A stretch of DNA of 49,738 nt from Fidelibacterota bacterium (GTDB lineage Bacteria; Fidelibacterota; Marinisomatia; Marinisomatales; UBA1611). The stretch lies in NCBI GenBank assembly GCA_018692355.1, contig JABHKE010000136.1, forward strand, positions 1 through 49,738, given 5' to 3'. The notes under the pieces were generated by a model. That model was not told where the DNA came from, made no database searches, and was given only the letters and a program-made list of their open reading frames with translations. Below, in pieces: positions 32,033 to 49,738 of this stretch. The translations under genes were made by a program, and so were the position numbers. Each line of letters begins with the position of its first letter. Position 1 is the first letter of the stretch.

Positions 32033-32054
32033 TCTGACTCAGACAGAGCAATTT

Positions 32055-32089: not shown

Positions 32090-32126
32090 ATTGATAAAAA
32101 TTTGTAATTTATCACCCCAATTATTT

Positions 32127-32209: not shown

Positions 32210-32210
32210 C

Positions 32211-32249: not shown

Positions 32250-32269
32250 AAATCTATTAGTTCTGATTT

Positions 32270-33109
32270 TTACCAGTCTTCGTCATCACCCCAATCATCT
32301 TCACCAGATTCTTCTTCAAGGTATTCTGCTTGTTCATCGAGCCAGGACTGGTATCCTCCATCATCATGAACGGTAAAGAAACCACGCATTCGGTAGTGGC
32401 CTAATCCACAAAGTTGGGCGCAGGCGATTTCCAAAGATTTTCCTTCTCGTTTGGACCCAATAGTTGTTTTTAGAAATTCGTCCGATGTCATGGTAGCTGT
32501 GAAATGAACCGGAATAACCATTCCCGGGATTGCGTCTTGTTTTACTCGAAGTTCTGTCAATGTAAAACTGTGAATCACATCTAAGGATGTAAGGTCAATT
32601 CGTATCTTTTTATCAACAGGTACATGCAATTGGTTCACCGTATAAAAATCATCTGATGCGTTATCGCTTGAACGATCTAAACCAACTGGGTTTTCCTGCT
32701 CATCCACAAGATCAGCTCGTGTATCACCAAATTTACCATCAGGTCCAGGGTAATGTACATTCCAGGCAAATTGTTGTGCTACAACACGAAGATGAATGGA
32801 TTCATCCGGTGTAGGAACATCAGTGACTCGTGCTGCCCAAATTGGAAATCCAAATCCAAAAAGGATCACAATTTCAATCACAGCCACAACTGCTTCAAGT
32901 AAAGATGACAAATGAGACTTGACACCTGTATAATCTGCTTTTGCATTTTTGGATGCACGGAATTTGACGAGACTGACTATAAAAAATAAACCCCAGCCTA
33001 CAAATAAAACGAGCATTAACCAGTGGACAATTGCATTAATTTCATCAATAGCAGCGCCCTGTACTGACATATTGATGGGTAAACCTAGTTTATGGAGAAT
33101 ATCAATCAA
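32270..33109 (-). CDS. ctaC: Cytochrome c oxidase subunit II (CuA)
   Basis: Two TMs, AQQFAWNVHYPG, DVIHSF, KQDAIPG, CAQLCGLGHYRM CuA motif; acidic tail EDDWGDDEDW. Confidence 0.95.
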   Translation of the reverse strand: MIDILHKLGLPINMSVQGAAIDEINAIVHWLMLVLFVGWGLFFIVSLVKFRASKNAKADYTGVKSHLSSLLEAVVAVIEIVILFGFGFPIWAARVTDVPTPDESIHLRVVAQQFAWNVHYPGPDGKFGDTRADLVDEQENPVGLDRSSDNASDDFYTVNQLHVPVDKKIRIDLTSLDVIHSFTLTELRVKQDAIPGMVIPVHFTATMTSDEFLKTTIGSKREGKSLEIACAQLCGLGHYRMRGFFTVHDDGGYQSWLDEQAEYLEEESGEDDWGDDEDW

Positions 33110-33353
33110 AAGAAGATCCTCTACTTTTATTCAATTGTTGAAAATTTTTGTTTTTTTTCCCGATCGAAATGATCGTGCTGATTACGCCACCCAACACTCC
33201 ACCTGTAACACCTAGCAATGTAATAATCGCCCAGTTCAATCCTTGAGATGCCGGTGCACTTGGGTCGCCAAAACAAGTCGCGCATGCTTGCGCTGTTTCC
33301 GGGATAAAGAACACCGTGAATGAAAGGAGAATAATGTGAAGAGTTCTTTTCAT
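33102..33353 (-). CDS. Small membrane protein with CxxC directly after a signal-peptide-like segment
   Basis: ...TAQA-CATCFGDP...TM; lies inside the cox operon and overlaps ctaC. Confidence 0.7.
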   Translation of the reverse strand: MKRTLHIILLSFTVFFIPETAQACATCFGDPSAPASQGLNWAIITLLGVTGGVLGGVISTIISIGKKNKNFQQLNKSRGSSFD

Positions 33354-33356
33354 GTA

Positions 33357-33554
33357 TCAGATATGTTTGATTTTTTTAACCATTGAAAAGCCATATGCGA
33401 TGAGCCCCGTAGCTACCAAAAAAGATAGCCCTGCCAACAAATTGGAAATATATCCGGGATTGGATGGATTGGAGATTTCAAACATGCCATAGTACCCAGT
33501 GATTAGGATAGAAACGCCAATGAAAAAGAAGTGAAATTGTTTGAGTGAAATCAT
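33357..33554 (-). CDS. Small 2-TM hypothetical protein in the cox operon
   Basis: MISLKQFHFFFI... two TMs; ATGA overlap with ctaF. Confidence 0.65.
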   Translation of the reverse strand: MISLKQFHFFFIGVSILITGYYGMFEISNPSNPGYISNLLAGLSFLVATGLIAYGFSMVKKIKHI

Positions 33555-33856
33555 GATAGGCTTGCATGGTCAATGGTAGTAATCATTGGAATAAACATAC
33601 AAAAAAGGAAAAAGACAAATGTCAGGCATAAGATCCAAATAATTGTATGTTTTTCTGTGATAAGGTGCATGAAGTATCCTGCTACAAGGCTGGCTTTCAC
33701 TGTAGCGATAGTCAAGGCTAAAAAGATGGCCTCGGTCGTTGACACATCCATGTAAGAAGCAGCAACGGTTAAGAGTGTTAAGGCTCCTAGCGCACCAAAT
33801 ACGGTTAAATAAACCTTAATGTGCTCTTGGATATGCCCGTTATCATGATCGCTCAT
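33551..33856 (-). CDS. ctaF: Cytochrome c oxidase subunit IV (prokaryotic)
   Basis: YLTVFGALGALTLLTV, IATVKASLVAGYFMHL. Confidence 0.9.
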   Translation of the reverse strand: MSDHDNGHIQEHIKVYLTVFGALGALTLLTVAASYMDVSTTEAIFLALTIATVKASLVAGYFMHLITEKHTIIWILCLTFVFFLFCMFIPMITTIDHASLS

Positions 33857-33865
33857 TATTGTCCC

Positions 33866-34465
33866 CTAAAGTAAGTAAAGAATTGGGAATAGAAAAATCC
33901 AGACAAGATCCACAAAGTGCCAGTAAAGTCCCGCAACTTCAATTCTGTTTGTAAATCGTTCAGGATCAGATTGCCACATCTTATTTCCAAATGGTAACCA
34001 GAAATAGCCCATAACAATCATACCACCGATTATGTGCAACATATGTAGACCAGTCAATGTAAAATAGATTCCCATGAATGTACTGGATGATGGGTAAATC
34101 CCATGGTGGAATTTTCCAGTATATTCAAAATATTTGACAACTAGGAATAAAAATGCGCACAGAAGGGTAAGTCCCATATACATCTTATATTTTTCAAAAT
34201 CTTTCATTTTCAAAGATGCCCAGGACATGATCACCGTTACACTTGACGAAATCAAAACTATGGTATTGAAAGTTGCCATGGGGATACTCAATTTTGAACC
34301 CCAGTATGCAAAATCGCCTACTGGCGCTGCCATTCTCAAAAAAACATATGCAGAGAATAGTCCGCCAAATAGCATTATTTCGGAAGCCAGAAAAACCCAG
34401 ATTCCTAATTTAGAATTATTTAAACCTGTATCAGGTCTTTCTTCAACTATGTATGGAATTTGCAC
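33866..34465 (-). CDS. ctaE: Cytochrome c oxidase subunit III
   Basis: WVFLASEIMLFGGLF, NTIVLISSS, TGLHMLH, GLYWHFVDLVWIFLFP. Confidence 0.95.
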   Translation of the reverse strand: MQIPYIVEERPDTGLNNSKLGIWVFLASEIMLFGGLFSAYVFLRMAAPVGDFAYWGSKLSIPMATFNTIVLISSSVTVIMSWASLKMKDFEKYKMYMGLTLLCAFLFLVVKYFEYTGKFHHGIYPSSSTFMGIYFTLTGLHMLHIIGGMIVMGYFWLPFGNKMWQSDPERFTNRIEVAGLYWHFVDLVWIFLFPILYLL

Positions 34466-34477
34466 CGTCAGAGTCCT

Positions 34478-36187
34478 TTATTTTTCTGTTTGCGGTGAGA
34501 AATCTTTATCTGCACCGGGAACACTATACTCATAAGGTCCTCGATACACTTCAACATCGCCTTCAAAGTTCGCATGGGGAACGGGAGGAGAAGGCGCTGA
34601 CCATTCAACGGTCGTTGCACCCCATGGGTTTCGATCTACTTTTTCGCCATTGAACATGGAAACAAATACATTAATAATGAATGGAATCTGTGCTGCCGCA
34701 AGGCAGAAAGCGGAAATAGACATAAACTCATTCCATTGCAGCACATCCTGAGCATGAGCATAAAGTTGTCCACCATCATACAGACGGCGAGAGACACCAG
34801 CAAGCCCTTGAATAAACATGGGCATAAAAACACCATTCATAAAAATGAGTGATGGCCAAAAGTGAAGTTTTCCCAGAGCTTCACTCATTTTTCTCCCTGT
34901 GATTTTAGGGAACCAATAATAGATTCCTGCAAAGAGGGCGAAGATAGTGCCCGGTGCAACTACATAATGGAAGTGACCAATCACGTAATAGGTATCATGA
35001 AGATGAATATCCGATGCGCCTACACCCAGAGGGAGACCTGTTAAACCACCAATCCCAAACATGGGTAAGAATGCCAACGCAAATAACATGGGAGTTGTAA
35101 AACGGATAGATGCTCCCCATAGTGAAATGAAGAACGCAGTTAAGATTACCACCGATGGAATCGAAATAATCATGGTAGTTGTTTGGAAAAAAGCACTCAT
35201 AGCCTGCCCCATTCCTGTTAAAAACATATGATGTGCCCAAACAATAAAGGACATAAAACCAAGAAAAACGGATGCATAGACCAAGGATTTATACCCCCAG
35301 AGAGGTTTCCTTGTATTATTTGCAATCACGTCTCCAACAATTCCCATTGCGGGAAGAATTAAAACATAAACTTCAGGATGAGCGAGAAACCAGAATAAAT
35401 GCTGCCAAAGAAGTGGAGATCCCGAGCCATAAACATCAACGGTTGCACCACTGTAGACCAATCCGCTGGGTAAGAAAAAACTTGTATGAGCTACTCTATC
35501 CATCAATTGCAGAACTGCAGCCGCTTCAAGAGGTGGAAATGCAAGAACCAATAAAAAAGCAGTGACAAACTGTGCCCAGACAAAGAAAGGAAGTCTAAAC
35601 CAAGAAAGTCCAGGTGCCCTTAATTGAACAATGGTAACAATAATATTCATAGAACCTAAAAGGGAAGATGTAATTAAAAAGACCATCCCAATAAGCCATG
35701 TTGTTTGACCGGTTTCAAAGATCGAGAGTGGTGGATAAGAAGTCCACCCTGATCTTGCAGCTCCTTCCGGCATGAAAAAACTAGCCAGCATAATGACACC
35801 ACCAATAAAGTATGACCAGTAACTAGCAGCATTCAATTTAGGGAATGCCATATCTGGTGCGCCGATTTGCAAGGGAACAATATAGTTTCCAAATGCGCCA
35901 ACAGCCAGAGGTACCACACCTAGAAAGATCATTATTGTACCATGCATGGCACCTAACATATTATAAATCTCCGGCATTAAAATATCGGATTCACCTAGTA
36001 GCCAACCGACTATGGGGACTGATGTTTCCGGGTAGGCCAATTGCCATCTCATAACCATCATCAGGCAAAATCCAAAAAACAGGAACAATAGTGAAGTGAT
36101 CCCATATTGGAGCCCAATGACTTTATGGTCTACAGAAAAAATATATTTCTGTAAAAAATTCTCTTCGTGGTGAGAATCATTACTCAC
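34478..36187 (-). CDS. ctaD: Cytochrome c oxidase subunit I, A1-type heme-copper oxidase
   Basis: MHGTIMIF, HPEVY, WAHHMF, HDTYYVIGHFHY, SRR; GTG start with GAGGAG RBS. Confidence 0.97.
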   Translation of the reverse strand: MSNDSHHEENFLQKYIFSVDHKVIGLQYGITSLLFLFFGFCLMMVMRWQLAYPETSVPIVGWLLGESDILMPEIYNMLGAMHGTIMIFLGVVPLAVGAFGNYIVPLQIGAPDMAFPKLNAASYWSYFIGGVIMLASFFMPEGAARSGWTSYPPLSIFETGQTTWLIGMVFLITSSLLGSMNIIVTIVQLRAPGLSWFRLPFFVWAQFVTAFLLVLAFPPLEAAAVLQLMDRVAHTSFFLPSGLVYSGATVDVYGSGSPLLWQHLFWFLAHPEVYVLILPAMGIVGDVIANNTRKPLWGYKSLVYASVFLGFMSFIVWAHHMFLTGMGQAMSAFFQTTTMIISIPSVVILTAFFISLWGASIRFTTPMLFALAFLPMFGIGGLTGLPLGVGASDIHLHDTYYVIGHFHYVVAPGTIFALFAGIYYWFPKITGRKMSEALGKLHFWPSLIFMNGVFMPMFIQGLAGVSRRLYDGGQLYAHAQDVLQWNEFMSISAFCLAAAQIPFIINVFVSMFNGEKVDRNPWGATTVEWSAPSPPVPHANFEGDVEVYRGPYEYSVPGADKDFSPQTEK

Positions 36188-36381
36188 GTGATTTCTCCTC
36201 TCCCCTCTCTAAGGTTGATTAAAATTATTAAAGATTCGTTATAAATTGATCTGAAATATAAGAAGCAAAAATTAAAATTCAATTAAAACTCTATTAGAAT
36301 GTTCTAATGCTTTTGTCTCGAATGCCCTATTCATATTTTGTAGTAAATAAATCCAATGGATTATTTACTACAAAATATAAC

Positions 36382-36708
36382 TTAATCTATTTCTAGGTTG
36401 TAAATATTTTCAAAAATATCCGTTTCCAGCATTCGGATTGCGTCCCAAGTCATCTTGGTACATACCCGGGCGCAAACTTGACAGCCGGTACATTCATTAA
36501 AACGAATCTGAACTGGTGGGATAATAATTTCATATTTATCTTTTGCTACTGGTTCTATACAATCAACGGGGCAAAACGGCACACATGCTTGACAACCGGT
36601 GCAATTATCTTCATCAACGATTGCCATGAGCCTCGGGCGTTTTGTTTTTTCTCGAGGAATGTCTGGTAAATCTGGAATTCCTTTGAAATGATTATATGTG
36701 TTTGCCAT
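36382..36708 (-). CDS. 2x[4Fe-4S] dicluster ferredoxin-like protein
   Basis: CTGCQACVPFCP and CTGCQVCARVC motifs. Probable start is ATG 36708. Confidence 0.9.
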   Translation of the reverse strand: MANTYNHFKGIPDLPDIPREKTKRPRLMAIVDEDNCTGCQACVPFCPVDCIEPVAKDKYEIIIPPVQIRFNECTGCQVCARVCTKMTWDAIRMLETDIFENIYNLEID

Positions 36709-36770
36709 GTTTTTCAAAAAGTATTAGATAAACAATTTACTAATAAATATTAAATCCAAAGAAATGAAAT

Positions 36771-36929
36771 TTACTGTAGGATATATTTTTCTATTACCCA
36801 CCCTGCCACAAAACAAACAATGCCAGCCAGGAGCAATTTTGGGTCCATCAATTGAGGAAATTTAATAATAAACCCAATCCCGATCATTGTCATACCCAGA
36901 AGTTCCAATCCTTTGGCACCGTAATACAT
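36771..36929 (-). CDS. Small 2-TM protein, 52 aa (below ORF-track cutoff)
   Basis: MYYGAKGLELLGMTMIGIGFIIKFPQLMDPKLLLAGIVCFVAGWVIEKYILQ*; the ATG overlaps the upstream TAA (TAATG). Confidence 0.7.
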   Translation of the reverse strand: MYYGAKGLELLGMTMIGIGFIIKFPQLMDPKLLLAGIVCFVAGWVIEKYILQ

Positions 36930-37405
36930 TATTCAGTATCCGGTTTTAGTTTTGAAATAATGGCGATCTGTTCCTTAAAGGCATAATTCTTGATTATTAG
37001 TGACCAAATATGATGTCCGTAAGCGATGAGGAATAAAGGTCCATGTAACCAGGAAGATGGCATGTGGTTATCCACGGCACCGCCATGAATAAATACAGCA
37101 CCCACTAAAGTAAGCGTTAACATGAGATGTGGAAACAGTTTCATTTTTAATTTTCGTTCCCGTATCCAGAGTTCATTTTCTCCCAGCTTCTTTAAAATGG
37201 CCTCCTTGATTCCTTTACCAGTAGATATAAAAAAATACATTACTACTGTTTCTGTTATGGCAAATATCAAGATCATAAACACTGCAAAGCGAGGGTGGTT
37301 TGCACCTATCAAATCCATTTGAAAATATCCACTAATTCCTGTCAAGGTTAAGTTTATAAAATTAACAAACATGAGCAAGTAACAAGTGATCATAAATATC
37401 CACAT
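36929..37405 (-). CDS. Hypothetical 4-TM membrane protein
   Basis: 158-aa ORF with four hydrophobic helices and several His; translationally coupled to the 52-aa ORF. Confidence 0.75.
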   Translation of the reverse strand: MWIFMITCYLLMFVNFINLTLTGISGYFQMDLIGANHPRFAVFMILIFAITETVVMYFFISTGKGIKEAILKKLGENELWIRERKLKMKLFPHLMLTLTLVGAVFIHGGAVDNHMPSSWLHGPLFLIAYGHHIWSLIIKNYAFKEQIAIISKLKPDTE

Positions 37406-37560
37406 TTGAGTTTCTTTTCTCCGGGTTAAAAATGGGAGCAGAAAATACTAAACTAACTTTAACTTTTCATAGGAAGATGCGTCTAAATATTCTATCCATT
37501 GTAATAGAAAACTGGTAAATTTGAAACCCAAATTCATCAAATTATATAAGGAAAAATAAC

Positions 37561-38271
37561 ATGAAGCTTAAGAAATTAATCGTCACCGGAATTGCTATGA
37601 CTTTTGCAATCGCATTTGTGGACGCTGGTACCTTAAAAGGCCACGTGAAATATGATGGAAAAGCTCCGAAATCAAAACGGTTAAAAATGGATGCAGATCC
37701 AGTTTGTGGTGCATCTCATTCCGGCCCGGTTTACAGTGAGAGTTTTAAAATGGCAGCTGATGGCTCCATGGCAGAAGCAATTGTTTATTTAAAGAATGTT
37801 TCTTATTCCGGTGGTTCACCTGCAGATCCTGTCATTTTAGATCAAAATGGCTGTATTTATAATCCCCATGTATTAGGGCTGGTTGCAGGGCAAGCACTGC
37901 TGATTAAAAACAGTGATGCCACATTGCATAATATCCACTCCAGACCCAATGTGAATAAGGAATTCAATTTTGCAATGCCGAAAGTAGTGAAAGAAAAAAA
38001 ATCAACTTTTGCGGAATCTGAACCAGAACCATTTTACATTAAATGTGATGTTCATCCCTGGATGAAAGCTTGGGTCTTGGTTTCAGATCACCCATACTTT
38101 GCAGTTACAGATTCGAATGGGAATTTCTCCATTGATGGCATTCCAGCTGGATCTTATGAAGTGGTTTGCTGGCAGGAAAAATTCAAAAAGAAACCGATGA
38201 CTGCAACAGTCACAATTGGTGATGGTGAAACCAATCAGGATTTCACATTCACACGACCAAAGAAAAAGTAA
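37561..38271 (+). CDS. Exported cupredoxin-like (type-1 Cu) protein with carboxypeptidase-regulatory-like beta-sandwich
   Basis: Signal peptide (VDA|G); LHNIH ... KCDVHPWM (H/C/H/M ligands); FAVTDSNGNFSIDGIPAGSYEV; AAGGA RBS. Confidence 0.8.
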   Translation: MKLKKLIVTGIAMTFAIAFVDAGTLKGHVKYDGKAPKSKRLKMDADPVCGASHSGPVYSESFKMAADGSMAEAIVYLKNVSYSGGSPADPVILDQNGCIYNPHVLGLVAGQALLIKNSDATLHNIHSRPNVNKEFNFAMPKVVKEKKSTFAESEPEPFYIKCDVHPWMKAWVLVSDHPYFAVTDSNGNFSIDGIPAGSYEVVCWQEKFKKKPMTATVTIGDGETNQDFTFTRPKKK

Positions 38272-38294
38272 TTAAAAACACCATTAAGTTTTTG

Positions 38295-38324
38295 AAAGGC
38301 GGAGAAACTCTCCGCCTTTTTTTT
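38295..38324 (+). terminator. Intrinsic terminator
   Basis: AAAGGCGGAG-aaact-CTCCGCCTTT followed by a T tract. Confidence 0.85.
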
Positions 38325-38338
38325 ATCTAAATTTTGCC

Positions 38339-39178
38339 ATGGTAAAATTCATTTTATTTCTAGGTATCATTATTTGTTTCAGTTGCAGTTCTCCGGAGAA
38401 AATATATTCGGTGAAAGGAACCATTTACGTACTCAAACCGGATTCCATGATGATCGTCATTGCACATGATACAATTCCTGATCTTATGTATCCCATGGTC
38501 ATGCCCTTTGATTTGAAAGATCTGAAAGAGATCGAAGGATTGTCTGTTGGAGACAGTGTTCATTTTGAATTTGTTTGGGGCGATACATCCACGTGGGCTC
38601 GGAAGTTTAAAGTTGTGGGCCAAGGGAAATTGCCGGAGGATGAGGATGATGATTTCTTCGAAGATGAAAACTATTCAGAACGAGGTATAGGCGAGATTAT
38701 TGATAATGTAGCCTTCTTGGATTTGGACAGTTCATTGGTACGCCTATCTGATTCCGATGGAAAATATCGGTTCATTTCTTTCATATTTACGCGGTGTCCC
38801 ATGCCGAATATGTGTCCTGCGGTAGTGATTAAGAATGATTATTTAGCGAAGGCATTTAAAGAAAGGAATGACATAGAATTCGTCATGGTCAGTTTTGATT
38901 ATAAACACGACACACCCTCGGTATTGAAAGACTTTTATGGTTCAACCATAGAAGGATTTGATAACTGGAAAGTGTGGTCAAGCACGGGTCATATTGAAGA
39001 TGTATATCGTCTAGCAAAACAAAGTGGTTGCAACTTTTGGGGAATTGAAGAAAACAAAATTGGCCACACACTTCGGTCTATTTTAATAGGTCCTAATCGT
39101 GAGATATTAGGCAACTGGCCCGGCGACAATTGGAAAGCAGGAAACGTGAAAACTGCAATTGAATTGTTAATGAAATAA
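38339..39178 (+). CDS. CusF-like + SCO fusion lipoprotein (copper chaperone)
   Basis: Lipobox-like CFSC; IAHDTIPDLMYPMVMPF (CusF-type H/M/M); FIFTRCPMPNMCP and GHT SCO motifs. Confidence 0.85.
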   Translation: MVKFILFLGIIICFSCSSPEKIYSVKGTIYVLKPDSMMIVIAHDTIPDLMYPMVMPFDLKDLKEIEGLSVGDSVHFEFVWGDTSTWARKFKVVGQGKLPEDEDDDFFEDENYSERGIGEIIDNVAFLDLDSSLVRLSDSDGKYRFISFIFTRCPMPNMCPAVVIKNDYLAKAFKERNDIEFVMVSFDYKHDTPSVLKDFYGSTIEGFDNWKVWSSTGHIEDVYRLAKQSGCNFWGIEENKIGHTLRSILIGPNREILGNWPGDNWKAGNVKTAIELLMK

Positions 39179-39250
39179 CTCACTTCAATCCATTGCTTTT
39201 AAAAGAGTAGTGTCCGCAGGTTGGCGGAAAGGACATTGAGAAAAGATATT

Positions 39251-39286
39251 AAAAAAGCCATCCACTTTCAGGTGATTGGCTTTTTT
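39251..39286. terminator. Bidirectional terminator between the SCO and octaheme genes
   Basis: AAAAAAGCCA-TCCAC-tttcag-GTGAT-TGGCTTTTTT between convergent genes. Confidence 0.75.
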
Positions 39287-39309
39287 AATTTTAAGTATGC
39301 AATAGGTTT

Positions 39310-42285: not shown

Positions 42286-42293
42286 GCATAAAC

Positions 42294-43412
42294 CTAAATA
42301 TTAAAAAACCATTCTGGAATTGCGATAATGTATTTCAGGTTGAAGAACCACCGGAGATACATCTTGATGGGCAATGAAAACATGGATAGTCCAAAAAGCA
42401 TTAATGTTGTATATCGGATTGGACCTATTTTTTCAAATAGATCCTTTAGCCATGTTTTTGCTAATAAAATAGGGAACACGAACATGTAAGCAAACACCAC
42501 CAGAAATCCCATAAATTCCCTTAACATGATATTTGTAGGTAATCCTGTGCTGAGCATTTTTACCCATAAATACTCAGAAAGATTCACATTGTTCAATGGA
42601 ACTACTTTATGGGGATCCCAATATTCAAAGGGACCGAAGAAATTCCAATTTGGTCCACGGAAGAAGGTTCCAATTACGATTAGGAAAAGCCACAAAATGA
42701 GCCAGCCATACATAAAAATAAAAATGCCGATCCTCCGTTCCTTAAAGGAATAATACCCGTCCCCTTTGGGATTCGTATCGATGTAAGGAATAGCCATCAT
42801 TCCGAAAATGATGAACATGGGGAAAACAATTCCAGCCAACCACGGATCGAAATACACTAACATTTCTTGGAGTCCAAGAAAATACCAGGGTGCTTTGGAT
42901 GGATTTGGTGTTGATGCCGGGTTCGCTGGCTCTTCCAATGGTGCAGCAACCAAGATTGACCAGACTATCAAAAATACCATAAATAAAATTAAAGAAATGA
43001 ATTCAATATAAACCAAATCCGGCCATACCAGAACTTTATCATCCGGATCATTGTATTCTTCTGGCTTCAAGCCTTCTGCTAACCTATCATCATTGATGTA
43101 CGCTTTCTTCATTCCCAGCCAAATGAAGAAAAACATGGAATAAACCATTAGTACGATTGGAAAGTTATCCGGCTTTGTAAGGGTAATATTGAAGTTTGGA
43201 TCGAAATAACCAACTATAAAGAAAAAAGTTATGAATCCCATTCCAGCCCAAAGCCCGGGTTTTGTCCATAGTCTCCATATTCCCAATTTACGATTGAGTT
43301 TATCAAACCAATCTGTTGGTGGAAAAATGAGTGGTGTTAAAAGGGTTAAAAGGGTAAAACTGACAGTGGGAGCTGAAAGTGTGTCAATTACAGATTTAAA
43401 TGTTTCAATCAT
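42294..43412 (-). CDS. petD: Cytochrome b6 subunit IV-like protein (extended)
   Basis: VWPDLVYIEF, APLEEPANPASTPNPSKAPWYFLGLQEML, IPYIDTNP; extra N- and C-terminal TMs. Confidence 0.85.
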   Translation of the reverse strand: MIETFKSVIDTLSAPTVSFTLLTLLTPLIFPPTDWFDKLNRKLGIWRLWTKPGLWAGMGFITFFFIVGYFDPNFNITLTKPDNFPIVLMVYSMFFFIWLGMKKAYINDDRLAEGLKPEEYNDPDDKVLVWPDLVYIEFISLILFMVFLIVWSILVAAPLEEPANPASTPNPSKAPWYFLGLQEMLVYFDPWLAGIVFPMFIIFGMMAIPYIDTNPKGDGYYSFKERRIGIFIFMYGWLILWLFLIVIGTFFRGPNWNFFGPFEYWDPHKVVPLNNVNLSEYLWVKMLSTGLPTNIMLREFMGFLVVFAYMFVFPILLAKTWLKDLFEKIGPIRYTTLMLFGLSMFSLPIKMYLRWFFNLKYIIAIPEWFFNI

Positions 43413-43431
43413 AAGAATCTCAAATCAGTGT

Positions 43432-44226
43432 TTATAGGGGGCCGGAGATTCCGCCATCCTTTCGGATGCGCCAGAAATGTACGGCCAGGAATATCATCAT
43501 AATAAAAGGTACGGCAATACAGTGAAGCACGTAAAACCGAAGGAGTGTAGCTTCACCCACGAATCTGCCACCCAATAATGCAAAGCGCACGTCTGAACCC
43601 ATATGGACCAAATTAATATCTCCAATTGCAAGCAAAGAAGCACCTGGGCCTTCATGACCAATAAAGGGATGTGCCCTTGCCATATTTGTACCTACGGTGA
43701 CTGCCCAAATTGCCAATTGATCCCAAGGAAGAAGGTAGCCGGTGAAAGATAAAAACATAGTCATGGTCATGAGAAGTACTCCGACACCCCAATTAAATTC
43801 ACGTGGTGGTTTGTAAGAACCGGTCATGAAAACGCGAAGCATGTGTAACCAAACAGTTAAGACCATGGCATGGGCACCCCAGCGATGAAGTTCCCGCATC
43901 ATGCCCAAGGGTACTTGTTCTGTCAGATCTATGATATCTGTATAGGCATATTCCACCGTAGGCCTGTAATAGAACATGAGCAGAATTCCTGTAATTGTGA
44001 GGACCACGAACAGGAAGAATGAAAGTCCACCCATACACCATGTATAGCCAACCTTAACAGCATGTTTTGGTAATCGAGCAGGATGGAGGTGTAGAAAAAC
44101 ACTTCCAAGGATTGCATGCATCCGCTGGCGCCGAGTATGGGGTACACCAGATCGAATGATGGATTTCCAAACCTGGGATTCACCCATCCGTTCTAAAAAT
44201 GATTTTTGTTTATTGTCTTTTGCCAT
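43432..44226 (-). CDS. petB: Cytochrome b6-like (N-terminal cytochrome b)
   Basis: [24 protein letters not shown]...[17 protein letters not shown]-x14[15 protein letters not shown]. Confidence 0.93.
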
Positions 44227-44244
44227 TGTACCTAAATTGATTAA

Positions 44245-44799
44245 TTAAACTACCAAGAATGATTCAGAATTCTCCCACTCGCCTTTTTCCCATTTAAAAC
44301 TTTTTGTTTTATCTACGAGAATTTGTCCGTCATTTGAAAGAGATACTTTATATCTTTCCAATGGACGGGGTGCTGGGCCTTCGAAATTAATTCCGGTCAT
44401 CCGGAAACCGCTTCCGTGACACGGGCATTTAAATTTTCCTTCTGTTCGCAGCCAATTTGGTGTACATCCTAAATGGGTACAAACTGTGGAGAGAGCAAAG
44501 ATAGATTCTTCGTCTCTAACCACCCAAATATTAAATGATTTTTTATATCGGATATCCACTGTATTTGTTGCGTAATCATTCGGAAACCCAATTTTTAATG
44601 TTTGAGGGGGTTCGAATAATACATTGGGGAAAAGAAACCGTATCATCACTGTAAAAAACCCACCAGTTGCGCCGGCAAAAGCTATCCACCCTAGGGACAA
44701 CCATTTAAAAAATCCACGCCGACCCATTTCTTTTCCATTTTCAGAATTCTGGGTGGATGTACCTACCGATGCGGTTGGGGTAATTTTTTCTTCACTCAT
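44245..44799 (-). CDS. petC: Rieske [2Fe-2S] subunit
   Basis: Tat motif GRRGFFK plus TM; CTHLGC and CPCHGS boxes; GPAPRPL. Confidence 0.95.
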   Translation of the reverse strand: MSEEKITPTASVGTSTQNSENGKEMGRRGFFKWLSLGWIAFAGATGGFFTVMIRFLFPNVLFEPPQTLKIGFPNDYATNTVDIRYKKSFNIWVVRDEESIFALSTVCTHLGCTPNWLRTEGKFKCPCHGSGFRMTGINFEGPAPRPLERYKVSLSNDGQILVDKTKSFKWEKGEWENSESFLVV

Positions 44800-44801
44800 A
44801 A

Positions 44802-45680
44802 TTATATAACTTTGTTGTACGCAGATTGTAATGTTTTCATGGCAGCATCTCGAATCCGAAGATTCTCATCAGTTTTAGCTAACGAAACCAATTTTGTTTT
44901 GAATTGATCCTGTTTCAATAGAGACGAGACTTCAATCGCCACGAGAATCACTTGATTTTTTTCTGCTTCATCCACTTGAGGAAAAGCATTTAAATATTGT
45001 CTATCCATAAGGCTTTCAATGATGAATGCACCGGATGGGTCCCCCATCTTGGCTAAAGCAACGGCAGCATCCCATTGAATATTTGGCTCTTCATCCTCTA
45101 ATAATTTTTTCAACAATGGGATGGATTCTGGATTGCCTATCAATCCCATAGAAATTGTGGCACCGAGTCTCTCATCAGGAAAATCAGAATTTTCAATAAT
45201 CTCTTTTAATTTATTGGATGCATTTGTTGTACCTATCAAACCAACAGCCTGAATTGCAGCTCGCCGCGATTCACGATTTTCATCATTTAATCCATCAACC
45301 AATATTTCGGAATAAAAATTATCCCTGGTAACGCCCATAGCCAAAGCTAAATATGCCCTTACAAGCGGATCATCATGAATAGAATGATTATAAATGGAAA
45401 CCATTTGGTTTTTAAATGAAAGATCTGTGGGAATTTTATCCGGGTTGTTAAACACTTTTGATAACTCAAATGCAGATTGCCAGCGTTTGGAAGCAGAGCC
45501 GATCTTTACTTGGTTTAAAAGGGCTGAAGCATCATTTGTTTCAAAGGTAATGAAACGAAACAATAGAAAGAAAACCGCACCAAAAATAGCGATCATAAAG
45601 GGGATCAGGAAAAAAGAATAAAAAAGAGTATAGATCCTGGTTGATTCTTTTTTAGATAATTGTGTTGCGTTTTCGTTCAT
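44802..45680 (-). CDS. HEAT-repeat protein with N-terminal TM
   Basis: Repeats such as LVRAYLALAMG, SRRAAIQAVG, LEDEEPNIQWDAAVALAKMG. Confidence 0.85.
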   Translation of the reverse strand: MNENATQLSKKESTRIYTLFYSFFLIPFMIAIFGAVFFLLFRFITFETNDASALLNQVKIGSASKRWQSAFELSKVFNNPDKIPTDLSFKNQMVSIYNHSIHDDPLVRAYLALAMGVTRDNFYSEILVDGLNDENRESRRAAIQAVGLIGTTNASNKLKEIIENSDFPDERLGATISMGLIGNPESIPLLKKLLEDEEPNIQWDAAVALAKMGDPSGAFIIESLMDRQYLNAFPQVDEAEKNQVILVAIEVSSLLKQDQFKTKLVSLAKTDENLRIRDAAMKTLQSAYNKVI

Positions 45681-45715
45681 GATTTTAAATTGATCTTTAG
45701 GCTTGATTTTATTAT

Positions 45716-45868
45716 TCAGCTTCCATCTTTTAATTTTTCGATATCATTTTTCAAGTGCTTTGTCAAATTTTGAAGGTACCGCACTTCTTTTTTTAATTTC
45801 ATGTGTTCTCCTAAAAAGATCAAGGTAAAAACCAGAACTAAGATGGAGATCATTGGTAACGAGTCCAT
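45716..45868 (-). CDS. Small single-TM + coiled-coil protein, 50 aa
   Basis: MDSLPMISILVLVFTLIFLGEHMKLKKEVRYLQNLTKHLKNDIEKLKDGS*; TAATG overlap with the upstream ORF. Confidence 0.65.
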   Translation of the reverse strand: MDSLPMISILVLVFTLIFLGEHMKLKKEVRYLQNLTKHLKNDIEKLKDGS

Positions 45869-46014
45869 TATAACTCTTTTTCACCCTCATCTTCTTGCTT
45901 TAATTGCAAGCCCAATAGAATTGGAAAAAAGAACAGGATAATACATCCAACCATGAGCAGTCCAACGGCCCATTCCAGGTTCCGCATGAGCCATTCTAGT
46001 GTGAACCATTCCAT
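45868..46014 (-). CDS. Small single-TM protein, 48 aa
   Basis: MEWFTLEWLMRNLEWAVGLLMVGCIILFFFPILLGLQLKQEDEGEKEL*; starts 7 nt after the upstream stop. Confidence 0.65.
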   Translation of the reverse strand: MEWFTLEWLMRNLEWAVGLLMVGCIILFFFPILLGLQLKQEDEGEKEL

Positions 46015-46021
46015 TGTTTTA

Positions 46022-46129
46022 TTAGAGCACCCATGTTACTAATGTGACATAAACCAAAAGAAGCAATGTACACACAATCATAGAAATGACCTGCGTTTTA
46101 GTTAAAGGTTCTTTTTGTGTTTCAGACAT
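46022..46129 (-). CDS. Small single-TM protein, 35 aa
   Basis: MSETQKEPLTKTQVISMIVCTLLLLVYVTLVTWVL*; the ATG overlaps the TAA of the 432-aa gene (TAATG). Confidence 0.6.
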   Translation of the reverse strand: MSETQKEPLTKTQVISMIVCTLLLLVYVTLVTWVL

Positions 46130-47427
46130 TATTTTGCTGCTCGTTTTGCTTTGACAATGGCAGATTTGATTTTGCCTCTTAATGCTCTGTTATCGAGGGC
46201 ATTGATCTCATCCATATCCCCATCTAATCCTTTTGCAATCAGGCGATCAATTAATTGATCGCCTGATTCACCAGCATCTGCATTACTATTAGATGTTTCG
46301 GGAATTTCCGGCATGGGTGGACGTTCAAAAGTCCCCCGTTTAATTTTAACAATCATGGATTTGGCTTTTCCGCGAATCACTTTATCCTTGTGAGCATTCA
46401 CAGTGTCCATATCTCCATCTAATCCTTTATTCACCAAATATGCCACAAGATTTTCTGATGATAATGCATCGATTCCACCTCCGGACGCAGGTGGTGCACT
46501 ACCGGCAGGTTTATCTGGTTTTGGCGGTGTTACACCGCTACGCTTGGCTTTAACAATGCCTGCTTTGGCCATGCCGCGGATGGGTTTTTCAGGGATGGCA
46601 TTCACAAAATCCATATTGTTTTCCATGCCCATATTAATTGCGTAGTCGATATAATCTTGTCGCGATGCAAAACCGCCAAATTGGTTTGCGCCATCAGCAC
46701 CGCTATCCGTTTGCTCATCTTCTTTGGTGAAATCTACTTTAGGTACAATTATATCTAATTTTTGCAGGATTCGTGATTTGGCCAGCCAATTGAATTGTGT
46801 TAAAAATGAAAAAAGGCCTTTGGACGTCCGCCTGCATGTTACCCAAACACCCAACTCTGTTTCTTCAATGCTAAATTGGACATATTCACTAACAAGTGGG
46901 GATGTCCTGAAAGTGAAACCAAATTCTTTTTCTTTTTCAACAGTAATGATTCGGCATTTAAAATAGGGAGCGATGGTTCGAGGTCGAATTTTAAAGAATG
47001 ATCCTGGTTCAAGATTAAGATGGGTGAAAGAATATTTGTGGACATAGCGATCAATATCAAGGACAGGAAGTGATCGCTGAATTCCATAGAACCAAACATT
47101 ATACATATTTATAGATGTGATCATTTGCCACATGATGTCTTTGGTGGTGGAAAAATGGTGTTTGACAACACTTTCGCCGGTAAATGGGTTCCAGGCTGTC
47201 CAACTTTCGCCAACACCATTTTTGGGAACAGGCGGAGCCTGAAGTTTTGCTTCGGGTTGTTCAATACCTTCAAACTCAAGATCTTTTGATGAGTAATGCC
47301 GGATATTTCCATCTGAAAATTCTATTTCATACTTGGTGGGGTAGAAATAGATCTTCTTCAGAATACCGGTTTCACCGCTATTGCGAACTGTACAGGCTGT
47401 ACCCAGATCGATCCTATTTAGAATCAT
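46129..47427 (-). CDS. Hypothetical protein: small N-terminal domain + SRPBCC/START-like domain + three ~40-aa helical repeats
   Basis: 'KDIMWQMITSINMYNVW...RIITVEKEKEFGF...FSIEETELGVWVT' SRPBCC-like pattern; three 'G(L/M)xx(D/N)MDx(V/I)NAxxxxx(I/L)RGxxKxxIVKxKR' repeats. Confidence 0.7.
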   Translation of the reverse strand: MILNRIDLGTACTVRNSGETGILKKIYFYPTKYEIEFSDGNIRHYSSKDLEFEGIEQPEAKLQAPPVPKNGVGESWTAWNPFTGESVVKHHFSTTKDIMWQMITSINMYNVWFYGIQRSLPVLDIDRYVHKYSFTHLNLEPGSFFKIRPRTIAPYFKCRIITVEKEKEFGFTFRTSPLVSEYVQFSIEETELGVWVTCRRTSKGLFSFLTQFNWLAKSRILQKLDIIVPKVDFTKEDEQTDSGADGANQFGGFASRQDYIDYAINMGMENNMDFVNAIPEKPIRGMAKAGIVKAKRSGVTPPKPDKPAGSAPPASGGGIDALSSENLVAYLVNKGLDGDMDTVNAHKDKVIRGKAKSMIVKIKRGTFERPPMPEIPETSNSNADAGESGDQLIDRLIAKGLDGDMDEINALDNRALRGKIKSAIVKAKRAAK

Positions 47428-47573
47428 TAATAAAAGTCTTTGGTTGTTGATTTAGCATAAACTGTAAAAATTTGTCCTGAATCTAGCCTGAAACTTAATA
47501 TTATGTTTGTCCATTTGAAGTGGAAAAGTTTTACTCGATCCACTAAAAATGTCTCTAATTTTGCCGTCCGTTT

Positions 47574-48509
47574 ATGAATACATTTCGAAAATTTTCATAT
47601 TTATCCACAGGGTTGACTTATCTTTTGATTTTTGTAGGCGGTCTGGTCCGTGTTGCCGGTGCTGGTATGGGATGTCCCGATTGGCCCAAATGTTTCGATC
47701 GTTGGATTCCTCCAACCAGTTTGGAACAACTTCCAGATCATATTGATCCTGCCAAATTCAATATCGTTTTGGCATGGATAGAATACAGTAACCGTTTGTT
47801 TGGTGCATTGGTTGGATTGATTATTACGATCACTGCATTTTTGGCTTTCAAATATTATAAACATGTCAATCGGATCAAATGGTCGGTTTTAGCTGCATTT
47901 TTTCTCACATTGGTGGAAGGTTGGCTCGGTTCTATTTTGGTAGATACTGTATTAAATCCGATCAATATCACACTACATTTATTTATGGCATTGGTAATTG
48001 TAATGCTCTTATTGTATGCAGCGCAAGAAGCCTATTATGTAGAAAACCCTGATTCGGAGAAAATGAGCCGCTATCCTTCTAACTTGAAATGGATGTTTGG
48101 ACTTCTGGCAGGTATTTTGCTCCTGGATGTGGTTTTGGGAACCGAAATTCGAGGTGGTTTGGAAATGATCCGAAAAGATAATCCCATGGTAGAAAGTCAA
48201 TTTTTGCTTAATATGTTAGGCCCTTTTAAATACATTCATACCATTCTTGGATTTATCATTACGGGATTTTCCGGAATGCTTTGGTATCGATTGGTGAATA
48301 ATTCTATAAACCCTTCAAAGATCATGACACAAATTTCAACTGCTATTTTAGGATTAGTTTTAACACAAATTATTATGGGGGAATTGTTAGTTTTTCTTAA
48401 TGTTATTCCGACGATCCAACTTTTCCACATGTGGATTGCCTCCTGGATACTGGGGCTGGTCATGGTCCAATACACAGCCTGGAATCAATCTCAATTAACG
48501 CATGAATAA
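47574..48509 (+). CDS. ctaA: Heme A synthase (COX15/CtaA family)
   Basis: GGLVRVAGAGMGCPDWPKC, IEYSNRL, LHLFMA, IHTILG, LFHMW. Confidence 0.92.
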   Translation: MNTFRKFSYLSTGLTYLLIFVGGLVRVAGAGMGCPDWPKCFDRWIPPTSLEQLPDHIDPAKFNIVLAWIEYSNRLFGALVGLIITITAFLAFKYYKHVNRIKWSVLAAFFLTLVEGWLGSILVDTVLNPINITLHLFMALVIVMLLLYAAQEAYYVENPDSEKMSRYPSNLKWMFGLLAGILLLDVVLGTEIRGGLEMIRKDNPMVESQFLLNMLGPFKYIHTILGFIITGFSGMLWYRLVNNSINPSKIMTQISTAILGLVLTQIIMGELLVFLNVIPTIQLFHMWIASWILGLVMVQYTAWNQSQLTHE

Positions 48510-49089
48510 AAATATTTTCCTAATAATAGTCTGTATCATACTTTTAGGCTCAGGTGCATCGTGGGTAATCCAAAAAGCGAATTCATCGTATGAATTAACT
48601 GTCATTAAAAAAGTACCGGCATTTTCATTTATTACACAGGATGGTTTATCATTCACCGAAGAAAGTTTCCATAAAAAAGCCACGGTATTAGATTTTATAT
48701 TCACAAGCTGTGCCGGGCCATGCCCAATAATGACTAATAACATGACGCATCTTTATGAAGATTATGAGAATGTACCAGAAGTTCAGTTTGTTTCTGTAAC
48801 TGTTGATCCAAAAATTGATAATGCGAGTACTTTAAAAGAATATGCAAAAGCAAATGGCGTGAAAGATGATCGCTGGCAATTCCTAACATCCGATATTGAA
48901 TCCATTAAGGATTTGAAGAAAAATGGATTTATGCTATATGCCGGTGAATTACCACGTGGGCACGCCATTAAATTTGTATTGATAGATCAGGATGGACAAA
49001 TTCGAAAATATTATGATGGAACAGATAAAGCCAGTATGGCTGTTCTTCGAAAAGATCTGAATAATATTGTAAATGAAATTCAATCTTAA
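48502..49089 (+). CDS. SCO1/SenC family copper chaperone
   Basis: DFIFTSCAGPCP, VTVDPKID, GHAIKFVLIDQDGQIR. Confidence 0.92.
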   Translation: MNKNIFLIIVCIILLGSGASWVIQKANSSYELTVIKKVPAFSFITQDGLSFTEESFHKKATVLDFIFTSCAGPCPIMTNNMTHLYEDYENVPEVQFVSVTVDPKIDNASTLKEYAKANGVKDDRWQFLTSDIESIKDLKKNGFMLYAGELPRGHAIKFVLIDQDGQIRKYYDGTDKASMAVLRKDLNNIVNEIQS

Positions 49090-49738
49090 ATGAAAAGAGT
49101 CCCACCAAAAGCGAATTCATTGTCTGCAGCTTATTTTGAGCTAACCAAACCCAATATCACTTTTTTGATCCTTATTTCAACAGCATTGGGATATTATCTT
49201 GGTGCTGATGGAATAGATAACTGGTCCAAATTGTTTATAACATTGATTGGCTCCGGGTTGGTCTCTTCTGGTGCCGGTGCATTAAATCATTATGCAGAAC
49301 AGGAATCGGACCAACGAATGAACAGGACAAGTTCCCGCCCTATCCCAACGGGAATGATCTCGCCTAATTACGCCATGATGTTTGGCATTATAATCATACT
49401 TTTGGGTGTAGCTATACTTTTTTTTCTGATCAATAAATTAACAGCGATCCTCGCCATATCAACTGCATTACTTTATTTATTCGTTTATACACCATTGAAA
49501 AAAATAACTTGGCTCAATACATCCATTGGAGCGATTCCTGGTGCTATTCCACCCTTGGGAGGCTGGGTAGCAGCAACTGGAACTTTGGATCCAGAAGCAT
49601 GGATCCTATTTGCCATTATGTTTTTCTGGCAGCATCCTCATTTTTATGCCATCGCTTTTATGTGCAAAGAAGATTATGCAAGAGCCAACTTGAAAATGCT
49701 ACCTGTCCTTGAAACGGATGGAAAGCGAACTAATCGTC
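49090..49738 (+). CDS. ctaB: Heme O synthase (protoheme IX farnesyltransferase), 3' end outside the window
   Basis: Not in the ORF track. From ATG 49090: ...YFELTKPNIT...ALNHYAEQESDQRMNRTSSRPIPTG...YTPLKK...GAIPPLGGW...WQHPHFYAIA. Confidence 0.95.
   Translation, partial: MKRVPPKANSLSAAYFELTKPNITFLILISTALGYYLGADGIDNWSKLFITLIGSGLVSSGAGALNHYAEQESDQRMNRTSSRPIPTGMISPNYAMMFGIIIILLGVAILFFLINKLTAILAISTALLYLFVYTPLKKITWLNTSIGAIPGAIPPLGGWVAATGTLDPEAWILFAIMFFWQHPHFYAIAFMCKEDYARANLKMLPVLETDGKRTNR

Follow-up and report, generated by a model that had tools for sequence, protein, structure and literature searches.

Nearly the whole of a quinol-to-oxygen respiratory branch sits in one conserved gene cluster of Candidatus Marinimicrobia, the bacterial phylum also named SAR406, Neomarinimicrobiota and Fidelibacterota. 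The cluster lies at positions 32270-49738 of the window analysed here, a stretch of 49,738 bases that is the entire contig C99 of one metagenome-assembled genome (MAG; 2.05 Mb, 215 contigs, 86% complete, 3.9% contaminated) and is assigned to the phylum from the named homologues of its proteins. It encodes a Rieske/cytochrome b6/subunit IV complex with an octahaem cytochrome c (the bc genes), a secreted cupredoxin, an A1-type haem-copper oxidase in which the K-channel lysine is missing (the cox genes), and proteins for the supply of haem A and copper. We find it to be a real, conserved respiratory module built from variants that are catalogued and biochemically unstudied.

SAR406 bacteria are among the abundant heterotrophs of the dark, oxygen-poor ocean, and the oxygen affinity, the proton and electron yield and the copper demand of their respiratory chain bear on models of respiration in oxygen-minimum zones. 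Their aerobic chain departs from the textbook in having an eight-haem b6-type complex, a copper protein that would replace cytochrome c and an oxidase without the lysine. A preliminary description of this DNA had called the system non-canonical, which is fair by the textbook standard, but every departure is already catalogued in print, and the parts are unusual but catalogued versions of known enzymes. In the portions of Thrash et al. (2017) and Getz (2018) considered here, Marinimicrobia oxidases are treated as generic cytochrome c oxidase, surveys count a 'low-affinity cytochrome c oxidase', and the same portions of Thrash et al. (2017) place SAR406 oxidase transcripts in the lowest-oxygen samples. 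Our literature searches found no description of a Marinimicrobia bc/cupredoxin module or of acidic CoxII tails. The present analysis adds the pairing of acidic, tryptophan-ended tails on both complexes with a poly-lysine tail on the cupredoxin, the pairing of lysine loss with an additional membrane glutamate of CoxII, another lysine-less oxidase encoded by the MAG, and RNA-library contigs over the cluster.

In the account that we propose, the cluster would be the main aerobic respiratory branch, encoded in one conserved neighbourhood of five transcription units. Quinol would be oxidised at the Qo site of the Rieske/b6/subunit IV complex, probably with haem ci, and the high-potential electron would pass from the Rieske cluster to the membrane-anchored octahaem cytochrome, a stand-in for cytochrome c1 or f, then to the secreted amicyanin-like cupredoxin and on to CuA of CoxII, a subunit II to which no haem c domain is fused. 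Oxygen would be reduced by the A1-type aa3 oxidase, whose K-pathway is probably rebuilt around CoxII residue E79, while CtaA and CtaB would supply haem A, and an SCO protein together with a CusF-SCO fusion would load copper. Taken as a whole, with its branch, route, docking tails and rebuilt K-pathway, we incline to this account with some reserve. The direction and order of electron flow and the place of the cupredoxin as intermediate we infer from gene position, from the haem-c-less CoxII and from a weak complex prediction; the route through the cupredoxin, the docking of tails and the CoxII glutamate path are the best-supported readings and are put conditionally below.

Conservation of the cluster

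Synteny was counted over 80 related loci. Genes for a HEAT-repeat protein, Rieske protein, cytochrome b6 and subunit IV stand in front of the octahaem gene in all 65 loci with enough upstream DNA; the HEAT gene, the first of this five-gene core, is thus present in 65/65. The cox operon, scored by coxI, is found in 33 of the 37 loci with at least 8 kb downstream, and the cupredoxin gene in 54/62. In a set of 201 genomes from the phylum, the octahaem protein has a strong match in 58, a CoxI of type I (the class found in the window) occurs in 52 and the cupredoxin in 61; octahaem and cupredoxin coincide in 57 genomes, octahaem and type I CoxI in 51, and all three in 50. The cupredoxin is found, that is, in 57/58 octahaem-positive genomes and the octahaem protein in 51/52 genomes with type I CoxI. 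Some families, f24 and f26 for example, are without octahaem, type I CoxI and cupredoxin, and f3 and f22 have only a type III oxidase. The genomes being related to one another, these co-occurrence counts show a pattern and should not be taken for independent trials. The preliminary description had proposed one co-evolved module, and phylogenetic profiling of the parts bears this out: a scattered, independent distribution was looked for, and the parts were found to be syntenic and co-occurring.

Six loci (L030, L034, L037, L038, L041 and L044) carry the octahaem gene followed by tm158, ferredoxin, CusF-SCO, SCO and cupredoxin genes, with no oxidase within 10 kb. Since this oxidase-less sublineage keeps them, it is the bc genes and not cox that the ferredoxin and tm158 genes accompany; these two adjoin in 44/80 loci, some of which have no adjoining cox operon.

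Two short loci, L071 (5.2 kb) and L072 (2.0 kb), come from MAGs labelled Omnitrophota and Dehalococcoidales and carry Marinimicrobia-type octahaem genes at 40-55% identity; in L071 the HEAT, Rieske, b6 and subunit IV genes lie in front of the octahaem gene. These octahaem genes look like binning carry-over and not transfer.

The bc complex

Parts were called from a listing of open reading frames (ORFs) and from Pfam and NCBIfam scans of the window proteins (Table 1). Cytochrome b is split, with b6 (PF00033) and subunit IV (PF00032, TIGR01156) as separate ORFs, and the nearest NCBIfam models are Geobacter ExtP and ExtQ, both under their cut-offs (NF040969, ExtP, gives 268 bits on b6 against a cut-off of 290). 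The b6 protein carries the haem ci motif YTWCMGG, and its haem-ligand histidine pairs, spaced 13 and 14 residues apart, point to the b6 type. In the subunit-IV-like protein the Qo motif reads APWY in place of PEWY/PDWY (KAPWYFLG), the Rieske protein has both cluster-binding boxes (CTHLGC and CPCHGS), and 8 CxxCH motifs are present in 120/120 octahaem homologues among the matches listed. On its motifs (APWY, WCMGG, split b6 and subunit IV) the bc part is assigned to the APWY clade.

That clade is defined by this very combination, with WCMGG as the usual haem ci motif, in the portions of Kao & Hunte (2014; PMC4122944) cited here. An operon of Rieske, split b6 and subunit IV with an 'atypical octaheme cytochrome c' is described in the cited portions of Lücker et al. 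(2013; PMC3578206) for Nitrospina gracilis, Ca. Kuenenia and Ca. Methylomirabilis. The Marinimicrobia cluster shares with such operons the split b6 and subunit IV, APWY, WCMGG and an adjoining octahaem gene in place of c1/f. It differs from them in that its bc genes lie among those for a cupredoxin, an aa3 oxidase and the accompanying biogenesis proteins, and further in the HEAT-repeat gene and three mini-ORFs in front, in the acidic tryptophan-ended tail of the octahaem protein, and in its host, a heterotroph in which no other complex III was found.

The direction in which the complex runs turns on this last point. Apart from the b6 protein, neither a cytochrome b nor a cytochrome bd was found in the MAG, which is 86% complete. 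Alternative complex III (ACIII) was also not found; its absence is not proven, because the MAG is incomplete to that extent. The sole NrfD-family match, on contig C47, is an Fe-S/NrfD fusion behind EtfBA and was rejected as ACIII from its neighbour genes. The bc complex is thus the only complex III candidate found in this MAG, and it would therefore have to run forward to feed an oxidase; a heterotrophic host with no other complex III found likewise favours forward operation. It should run forward here, as far as can be judged from an incomplete MAG. The clade literature leans the other way: reverse operation is suggested for APWY complexes in the cited portions of Kao & Hunte (2014; PMC4122944), which also call the members of the clade uncharacterised. 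A complex working mainly in reverse or in another pathway, and standing near the oxidase for genomic economy only, would agree with that suggestion, with the relatives in which no oxidase adjoins, and with the ferredoxin gene that travels with the complex. We hold it to be highly improbable, since the MAG, with one cytochrome b and no ACIII found, has two CuA oxidases needing quinol-derived electrons, since co-occurrence with the type I oxidase is strong, and since no lithotrophic high-potential donor system is seen in the window.

The stretch of C47 at 21505-34421 encodes EtfB and EtfA, after them an Fe-S oxidoreductase of 754 aa and, at some distance, a 4Fe-4S/NrfD-like membrane fusion of 535 aa; these proteins may feed electrons into the quinone pool.

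The cupredoxin

The protein encoded between the bc and cox genes has a Sec signal peptide and ends in a tail ...RPKKK. Its predicted type-1 copper ligands (H123, C162, H165 and M168) are invariant in 23/23 sequences, and the ligand loop CDVHPWM recurs in 54/55 matches, the remaining one being a 60-residue fragment. The AlphaFold2 (AF2) model has a predicted local distance difference test score (pLDDT) of 87; its best matches in the PDB are amicyanin, Cupredoxin_1, plastocyanin and pseudoazurin chains, with TMt 0.66-0.73 against amicyanin and plastocyanin. The amicyanin equivalog model (TIGR02657) reaches 24.5 bits against a cut-off of 110.2. By ligands and modelled fold, the protein would be a type-1 (blue) copper cupredoxin and not an amicyanin equivalog. 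With the amicyanin and plastocyanin carriers (1mda, 1aaj, 1bxu) it shares the His...Cys-x2-His-x2-Met ligands, the amicyanin loop length and the cupredoxin fold; it differs from them in a domain embedded in a second beta-sandwich (CarboxypepD_reg) and in a poly-lysine C-terminus, and from amicyanin in its presumed partners, which are a multihaem cytochrome and CuA and not methylamine dehydrogenase. The candidate cupredoxin shuttle of the preliminary description stands as to a secreted cupredoxin with type-1 ligands, which would act as the carrier.

Complex prediction covered a single pair, in which residues 95-279 of CoxII, its soluble domain, were combined with residues 23-236 of the cupredoxin, its mature form, each as a 23-row alignment. 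The outcome was weak support, with a median of 0.39 against 0.00 for the best control, agreement between runs in at least 72% of contacts and a partner pLDDT of at least 87; the mark used is reached by 116/157 solved complexes and 2/215 mismatched pairs, and only 18/157 solved complexes score 0.60 or less.

These results have to be set against a different arrangement, in which complexes III and IV form an obligate supercomplex, the octahaem cytochrome feeds CuA directly, the charged tails are assembly or contact elements, and the cupredoxin is a side branch to other reductases or serves copper handling. A precedent exists in the actinobacterial bcc-aa3 supercomplex, where a dihaem cytochrome passes electrons directly to CuA. 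Solved members (6adq, 7q21, 8hcr) share with the present system a complex III with a multi-haem c subunit, a CoxII without haem c and linked genes, and are among the closest solved chains to CoxI; unlike the Marinimicrobia cluster, bcc-aa3 has no cupredoxin and has the K-channel lysine. Eight haems on a membrane anchor could bridge the distance, the cupredoxin gene is a unit of its own with its own terminator, and it stays beside the bc genes in five loci where no oxidase adjoins (L030, L034, L037, L038 and L041), so that it is not tied to the oxidase alone. Direct transfer is harder to reconcile with other lineages, which have the cupredoxin gene directly before coxI even where the stretch examined holds no octahaem gene; in metagenome loci whose CoxII is about 50% identical the order cupredoxin-coxI-coxIII-coxIV-coxII recurs. 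Invariance of the four type-1 ligands is in keeping with a redox carrier but not with a chaperone, contact between CoxII and cupredoxin is favoured over the controls in the weak complex prediction, and how two identical tails would bind one another is not obvious. We regard the obligate supercomplex as rather unlikely and prefer the route through the cupredoxin.

Two simpler views of the cupredoxin did not hold. A uniformly basic protein is only partly true to the data, and the consistent feature is the tail and not the net charge. A lysine tail that stands in for the lipid anchor of other phyla is unsupported, as 12/13 cupredoxins without the lysine tail are also without a cysteine in the signal region. 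One sublineage (L031, L043, L052, L053, L057 and L062) has an N-terminal insertion, ...SAHCDGCGTSD(T/N)HKHGS..., directly after the signal peptide; it is rich in Cys and His and could be an extra metal site or provide a lipid-anchor cysteine, and the pI is near neutral there.

The oxidase and its proton path

The K-channel lysine is usually held to be necessary in A-family oxidases. The preliminary description had called the oxidase a K-less A1 enzyme, and a gap-free alignment of CoxI to the Paracoccus denitrificans chain 1ar1_A confirms this: K354 of P. denitrificans corresponds to Ile348 (PSVVI against PTGIK) with the A1 motifs kept. The six ligand histidines (MHG, HPEVY, HHM, HFHY), the cross-link tyrosine, the glutamate of HPEVY (AHPEVY) and the aspartate at the D-channel entrance (GAPDMAFP, aligned to the same motif of 1ar1_A) are all retained. 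Elsewhere in the alignment S291/H292 are replaced by G285/D286 and T351 by Ser. The lysine was found in 0/38 readable CoxI homologues of Marinimicrobia loci and in 0/21 readable CoxI of metagenome loci, whose partner CoxII is only about 50% identical; because these 21 also lack it, the lysine-less subfamily is wider than the phylum.

Three classes of CoxI occur in the phylum. Type I, that of the window, is A1 and lysine-less; type II (44-50% identical) is A1 with Phe at the lysine position; type III (38-41% identical) is A2, has the lysine and occurs in genomes without the octahaem gene. The MAG has a type II enzyme in a second A1-type operon on contig C140 (C140:85-8412), with coxII, coxI, two coxIII-like genes and coxIV. 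Genes for NarH-like Fe-S, TorD-like and hemerythrin-like proteins stand directly ahead of this operon, those for an Rrf2-type regulator and another CtaA-like protein come after it, and the CoxII that it encodes has an internal DDWDDWGDEDEED stretch close to the C-terminus.

Lysine loss is catalogued and not new, because Degli Esposti et al. (2021; PMC8239418), who report that the K-channel was lost several times in family A, tabulate in their Table_3 lysine-less A1 and A2 enzymes with residue patterns closely like those of types I and II. Examples are A1 enzymes of Elusimicrobia (Y A I S C E), Methylacidiphilum (Y G L S V E) and Halobacteriovorax (Y S F S N D), as well as the rus-operon oxidases of Acidithiobacillus. 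Read in the first six columns of that table, the window CoxI is Y G I S A D and the C140 CoxI Y S F S N D; in the supplementary files searched the name Marinimicrobia has 0 occurrences. Like the 'KC-channel' or 'modified' COX1 proteins of family A, the window enzyme keeps the cross-link tyrosine and the D-channel and has a hydrophobic residue for K354, and its subfamily stands apart from them through its association with a cupredoxin gene and with a CoxII whose second transmembrane (TM) helix has E-x6-E.

CoxII has two TM helices, no haem c domain and a complete CuA motif, CAQLCGLGHYRM; the ligands H180 and C230-x3-C234-x3-H238-x2-M241 are invariant in 23/23 aligned CoxII. It is not a caa3-type fusion, CxxCH being absent from the window CoxII and from 150/150 CoxII representatives. 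The second glutamate, E79, lies seven residues after the canonical TM2 glutamate E72, and both are invariant in the 23/23 aligned sequences. It is present in 7/7 CoxII partners of lysine-less type I oxidases and 0/5 partners of lysine-containing ones; these five have the usual E..WT..P and no second Glu. At least 63/96 readable CoxII representatives have E-x6-E by a strict pattern that misses some true cases. From this covariation, E79 is likely to be the protonatable group of a rebuilt K-pathway. A Glu or Asp directly after S291 (position 292 of P. denitrificans) was considered as a specific substitute for the lost lysine and rejected.

The charged tails

The C-terminal sequence is ...EEESGEDDWGDDEDW in CoxII and ...SGDEDEDDWGDDEDW in the octahaem protein. 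The final nine residues, DDWGDDEDW, are the same in both (both ...EDDWGDDEDW), and the last ten tail codons of the two genes differ at two synonymous positions. In a six-frame scan of the whole 2.05-Mb genome no ORF other than these two had an acidic-W...acidic-W C-terminus, so the peptide tag that had been described as shared by both complexes is real. Octahaem homologues among the matches listed have an acidic end in 120/120 and a terminal Trp after the acidic run in 117/120; the CoxII tail is kept, with Trp after the acidic run, in 32/33 complete homologues of related loci. Residues 270-279 of CoxII have pLDDT below 50 in the AF2 model, behind a confident C-terminal helix, and the tail is predicted to be disordered.

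The tails vary together. Over all loci tabulated, octahaem and CoxII both have the acidic-W end in 39, the octahaem protein has another end and CoxII the acidic-W end in 1, and both have other ends in 2. An acidic-W CoxII goes with at least three lysines in the cupredoxin tail in 41 cases and with fewer than three in 1; CoxII with other ends goes with fewer than three in 13 and with at least three in 0. Distant CoxII relatives have a short D-x-F/V-W-x or DPF[RK] ending without an acidic run, and in the two non-Marinimicrobia-like loci with the octahaem gene (L126 and L143) an acidic-Trp end is missing from the octahaem protein, while the final six residues of the cupredoxin include fewer than three Lys/Arg. 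Judged from these endings, an old aromatic CoxII C-terminus was apparently expanded within one lineage, in which the octahaem protein gained a tail of like kind and the carrier a lysine tail to match.

We infer that the acidic-Trp tails on electron donor and acceptor and the poly-lysine tail on the cupredoxin are complementary docking tails that keep the carrier at the complexes; the three charged tails may hold it in place. Acidic docking elements of complex III are familiar from the 'hinge' protein of mitochondria and from cytochrome c1 of Paracoccus with its acidic domain, and the likeness lies in a highly acidic and probably disordered stretch of the cytochrome subunit that donates electrons, facing a basic feature of the carrier. 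Here the element is short, lies at the C-terminus and finishes in an invariant Trp; the acceptor CoxII has a second copy, and the counterpart is a poly-lysine tail on a copper carrier and not on a cytochrome c. The boldest form of the idea, that Trp-capped acidic peptides capture a poly-lysine carrier which never leaves the complexes, together with a CoxII-Glu K-pathway in a lysine-less A1 oxidase, is offered tentatively and we think it doubtful. If true, such a tail-guided shuttle would be a third organisation of III-to-IV electron transfer beside free diffusion and rigid supercomplexes.

The same tails may have nothing to do with a carrier: the older aromatic end of CoxII would pack on the oxidase or the membrane, and the acidic and poly-lysine additions would be a general adaptation of surface charge, for instance to seawater cations or anionic lipids. 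Poly-lysine could bind anionic lipid just as well, and the endings of the distant CoxII and of L126 and L143, where the octahaem protein is tail-less and the cupredoxin without a lysine tail, agree with such a history. It does not easily explain the nine identical final residues, which two unrelated proteins share and no further ORF in the genome has, the near-constant terminal Trp of the octahaem and CoxII homologues, and a lysine tail that tracks the acidic tails 41 to 1. This explanation appears unlikely to us, and docking remains the preferred reading of the tails.

Besides what is said above of reverse operation and the want of a characterised APWY complex, several observations weigh against the proposed account. 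Four loci (L027, L030, L038 and L066) have bc genes without an adjoining oxidase, with unrelated genes at the place of cox, and because of them the bc module can stand apart. The Glu or Asp at position 292 is not a specific compensation for the lysine, because the lysine-containing oxidases of the phylum carry it too; most K-containing enzymes in the table of PMC8239418 also have E at the 292 column. The complex prediction is at the level of weak support only and returned no interface, and carriers other than the cupredoxin are possible, since contigs C188 and C97 of the MAG hold candidate genes for monohaem cytochrome c lipoproteins. Several cupredoxins are neutral or acidic overall (median pI 9.0, minimum 5.5), and one locus (L075) has the acidic tails and no lysine tail. 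The combination of acidic-W and poly-lysine tails is essentially limited to one phylum, and its covariation may reflect one or a few events, the counts not being independent.

RNA-library coverage

Part of the stretch is contained in 20 public RNA-library runs from 14 studies, one of which holds 89% of the sampled words. Contigs of 4 runs from 3 studies, placed at 95% likeness or more, cover the cluster, those of X1 in 30/30 bins. Single contigs bridge coxII, orf83, orf65, coxIV and coxIII (32170-33927), coxI, the ferredoxin gene, the 52-aa ORF and tm158 (36169-37155), and b6, Rieske, HEAT, the mini-ORFs and orf432 (43407-46266); a further one (37566-38279) covers only the cupredoxin gene, as far as its terminator. 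The module is probably expressed. Against a firmer statement stands that such contigs, having no DNA control, are no proof of transcription, of strand or of single transcripts; they are also unable to rank genes, and differences in depth are not read as expression levels. A promoter scan gave 43 sites against a shuffle mean of 55.8, that is, fewer, and its result was not used.

Gene layout and accessory genes

In order of transcription on the minus strand, orf432, the mini-ORFs of 35, 48 and 50 aa, HEAT, Rieske, cytochrome b6, the 372-aa subunit IV and the octahaem gene form the first block, and tm158, the 52-aa ORF, ferredoxin, coxI, coxIII, coxIV, orf65, orf83 and coxII the second. The CusF-SCO fusion and the 236-aa cupredoxin lie between the two on the plus strand, and ctaA, sco and ctaB, also on the plus strand, occupy the far end, where the contig end cuts ctaB (Table 1).

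Table 1. Features of the respiratory cluster and its borders in the window (aa, amino acids; TM, transmembrane).
Feature	Position	Strand	Family match or remark
tRNA-Leu	32127..32210	+	directly downstream of coxII; bounds the cluster
coxII, CuA subunit, 279 aa	32270..33109	-	COX2 (Pfam), TIGR02866
orf83, small membrane protein in cox operon	33102..33353	-	no family; in 32/34 related loci with coxII
orf65, small protein in cox operon	33357..33554	-	no family; in 17/34 related loci with coxII
coxIV, caa3-type subunit IV family	33551..33856	-	PF03626 and TIGR02229, both over cut-off
coxIII, short, 199 aa	33866..34465	-	PF00510
coxI, A1-type haem-copper oxidase subunit I	34478..36187	-	PF00115, 444 bits
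2x[4Fe-4S] ferredoxin, 111 aa	36382..36717	-	Fer4 families; first-to-third gene of cox transcription unit
52-aa hydrophobic ORF	36771..36929	-	tblastn matches in 48/80 loci; 75-98% identity among the best twelve listed
tm158, four-helix membrane protein	36929..37405	-	no Pfam/NCBIfam family; invariant His37, Thr51-Glu52
Cupredoxin, secreted two-domain blue-copper protein (predicted), 236 aa	37561..38271	+	PF13620; amicyanin-like domain set in CarboxypepD_reg-type beta-sandwich
Strong terminator, 12-bp stem	38294..38320		directly 3' of cupredoxin gene
CusF-like Cu(I) domain fused to SCO-like thioredoxin fold	38339..39178	+	PF11604 and PF02630
Octahaem cytochrome c, 991 aa	39310..42285	-	N-terminal TM anchor, long helical segment, 8 CxxCH, acidic C-terminal tail
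Extended subunit-IV-like protein, 372 aa	42294..43412	-	PF00032, NF040970 (ExtQ), TIGR01156
Cytochrome b6, 264 aa	43432..44226	-	PF00033, 139.8 bits
Rieske [2Fe-2S] protein	44245..44799	-	PF00355; twin-arginine signal GRRGFF
HEAT-repeat (PBS-lyase-like) protein	44802..45680	-	PF13646, PF03130; one N-terminal TM helix
Mini-ORF, 50 aa, single TM	45716..45868	-	tblastn matches in 33/80 related loci
Mini-ORF, 48 aa, single TM	45868..46014	-	tblastn matches in 54/80 related loci
Mini-ORF, 35 aa, single TM	46022..46129	-	tblastn matches in 38/80 related loci
orf432	46129..47427	-	no Pfam/NCBIfam family; found in 37/80 loci
ctaA, haem A synthase	47574..48509	+	PF02628, 141 bits against 29.9
SCO1/SenC copper chaperone, 195 aa	48502..49089	+	PF02630, 74 bits; CAGPC (CxxxC)
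ctaB, haem O synthase, cut by contig end	49090..49737	+	TIGR01473, 249.6 bits against cut-off 210.3

Each component of the set of about 17.5 kb that had been described, comprising b6 complex, cupredoxin, oxidase and biogenesis genes, was found in its place, including the haem O and A synthases (CtaB and CtaA), the two SCO proteins (SCO and the CusF-SCO fusion) and the ferredoxin (a Fer4 protein). The 'about nine' uncharacterised genes count to nine: orf83, orf65, the 52-aa ORF, tm158, HEAT, the ORFs of 50, 48 and 35 aa, and orf432. That the cluster is self-contained is true in part, since the genes for cytochrome c maturation and CuB insertion lie outside it and the MAG also has the second oxidase operon and the candidate monohaem cytochrome c lipoproteins.

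The CusF-SCO fusion departs from the CxxxC motif of SCO proteins, because it has CPMPNMC (Cx5C), and is a probable copper chaperone. The neighbours of tm158 in a language-model atlas are Fidelibacterota hypotheticals only. DUF420 genes hold its place in L066 and L027, and tm158 was considered as a divergent CtaM/DUF420 protein and rejected, with an hhalign probability of 0.3%. The four ORFs below 60 aa are counted as genes because tblastn finds them in 33-54 of the 80 related loci. In its C-terminal half orf432 has three Lys/Arg-rich repeats with the motif ...(D)GDMD..NA....(I/L)RGK.K..IVK.KR..., and its atlas matches to AHSA1/polyketide-cyclase families score below 0.9. An N-terminal SRPBCC-type domain is possible on this weak lead and, if real, would make a lipid- or quinone-binding role conceivable.

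The ORFs at 32039-32229 were rejected as proteins, the stretch being the tRNA-Leu gene, which is also the reason for the very high nucleotide conservation of the coxII-side spacer in distant loci. Upstream of the cluster C99 carries parAB, the F1Fo ATP synthase operon and housekeeping genes. The ATP synthase operon is full (atpI, a, [c], b, delta, alpha, gamma, beta, epsilon; 3564-10447, plus strand) and lies about 22 kb from the respiratory cluster. Adjoining the cluster, at 28637-32032 on the plus strand, is the gene for a highly acidic protein (1131 aa, pI 4.05) that carries a C-terminal sorting domain for type IX secretion, and a homologue is found in the same position in several related loci.

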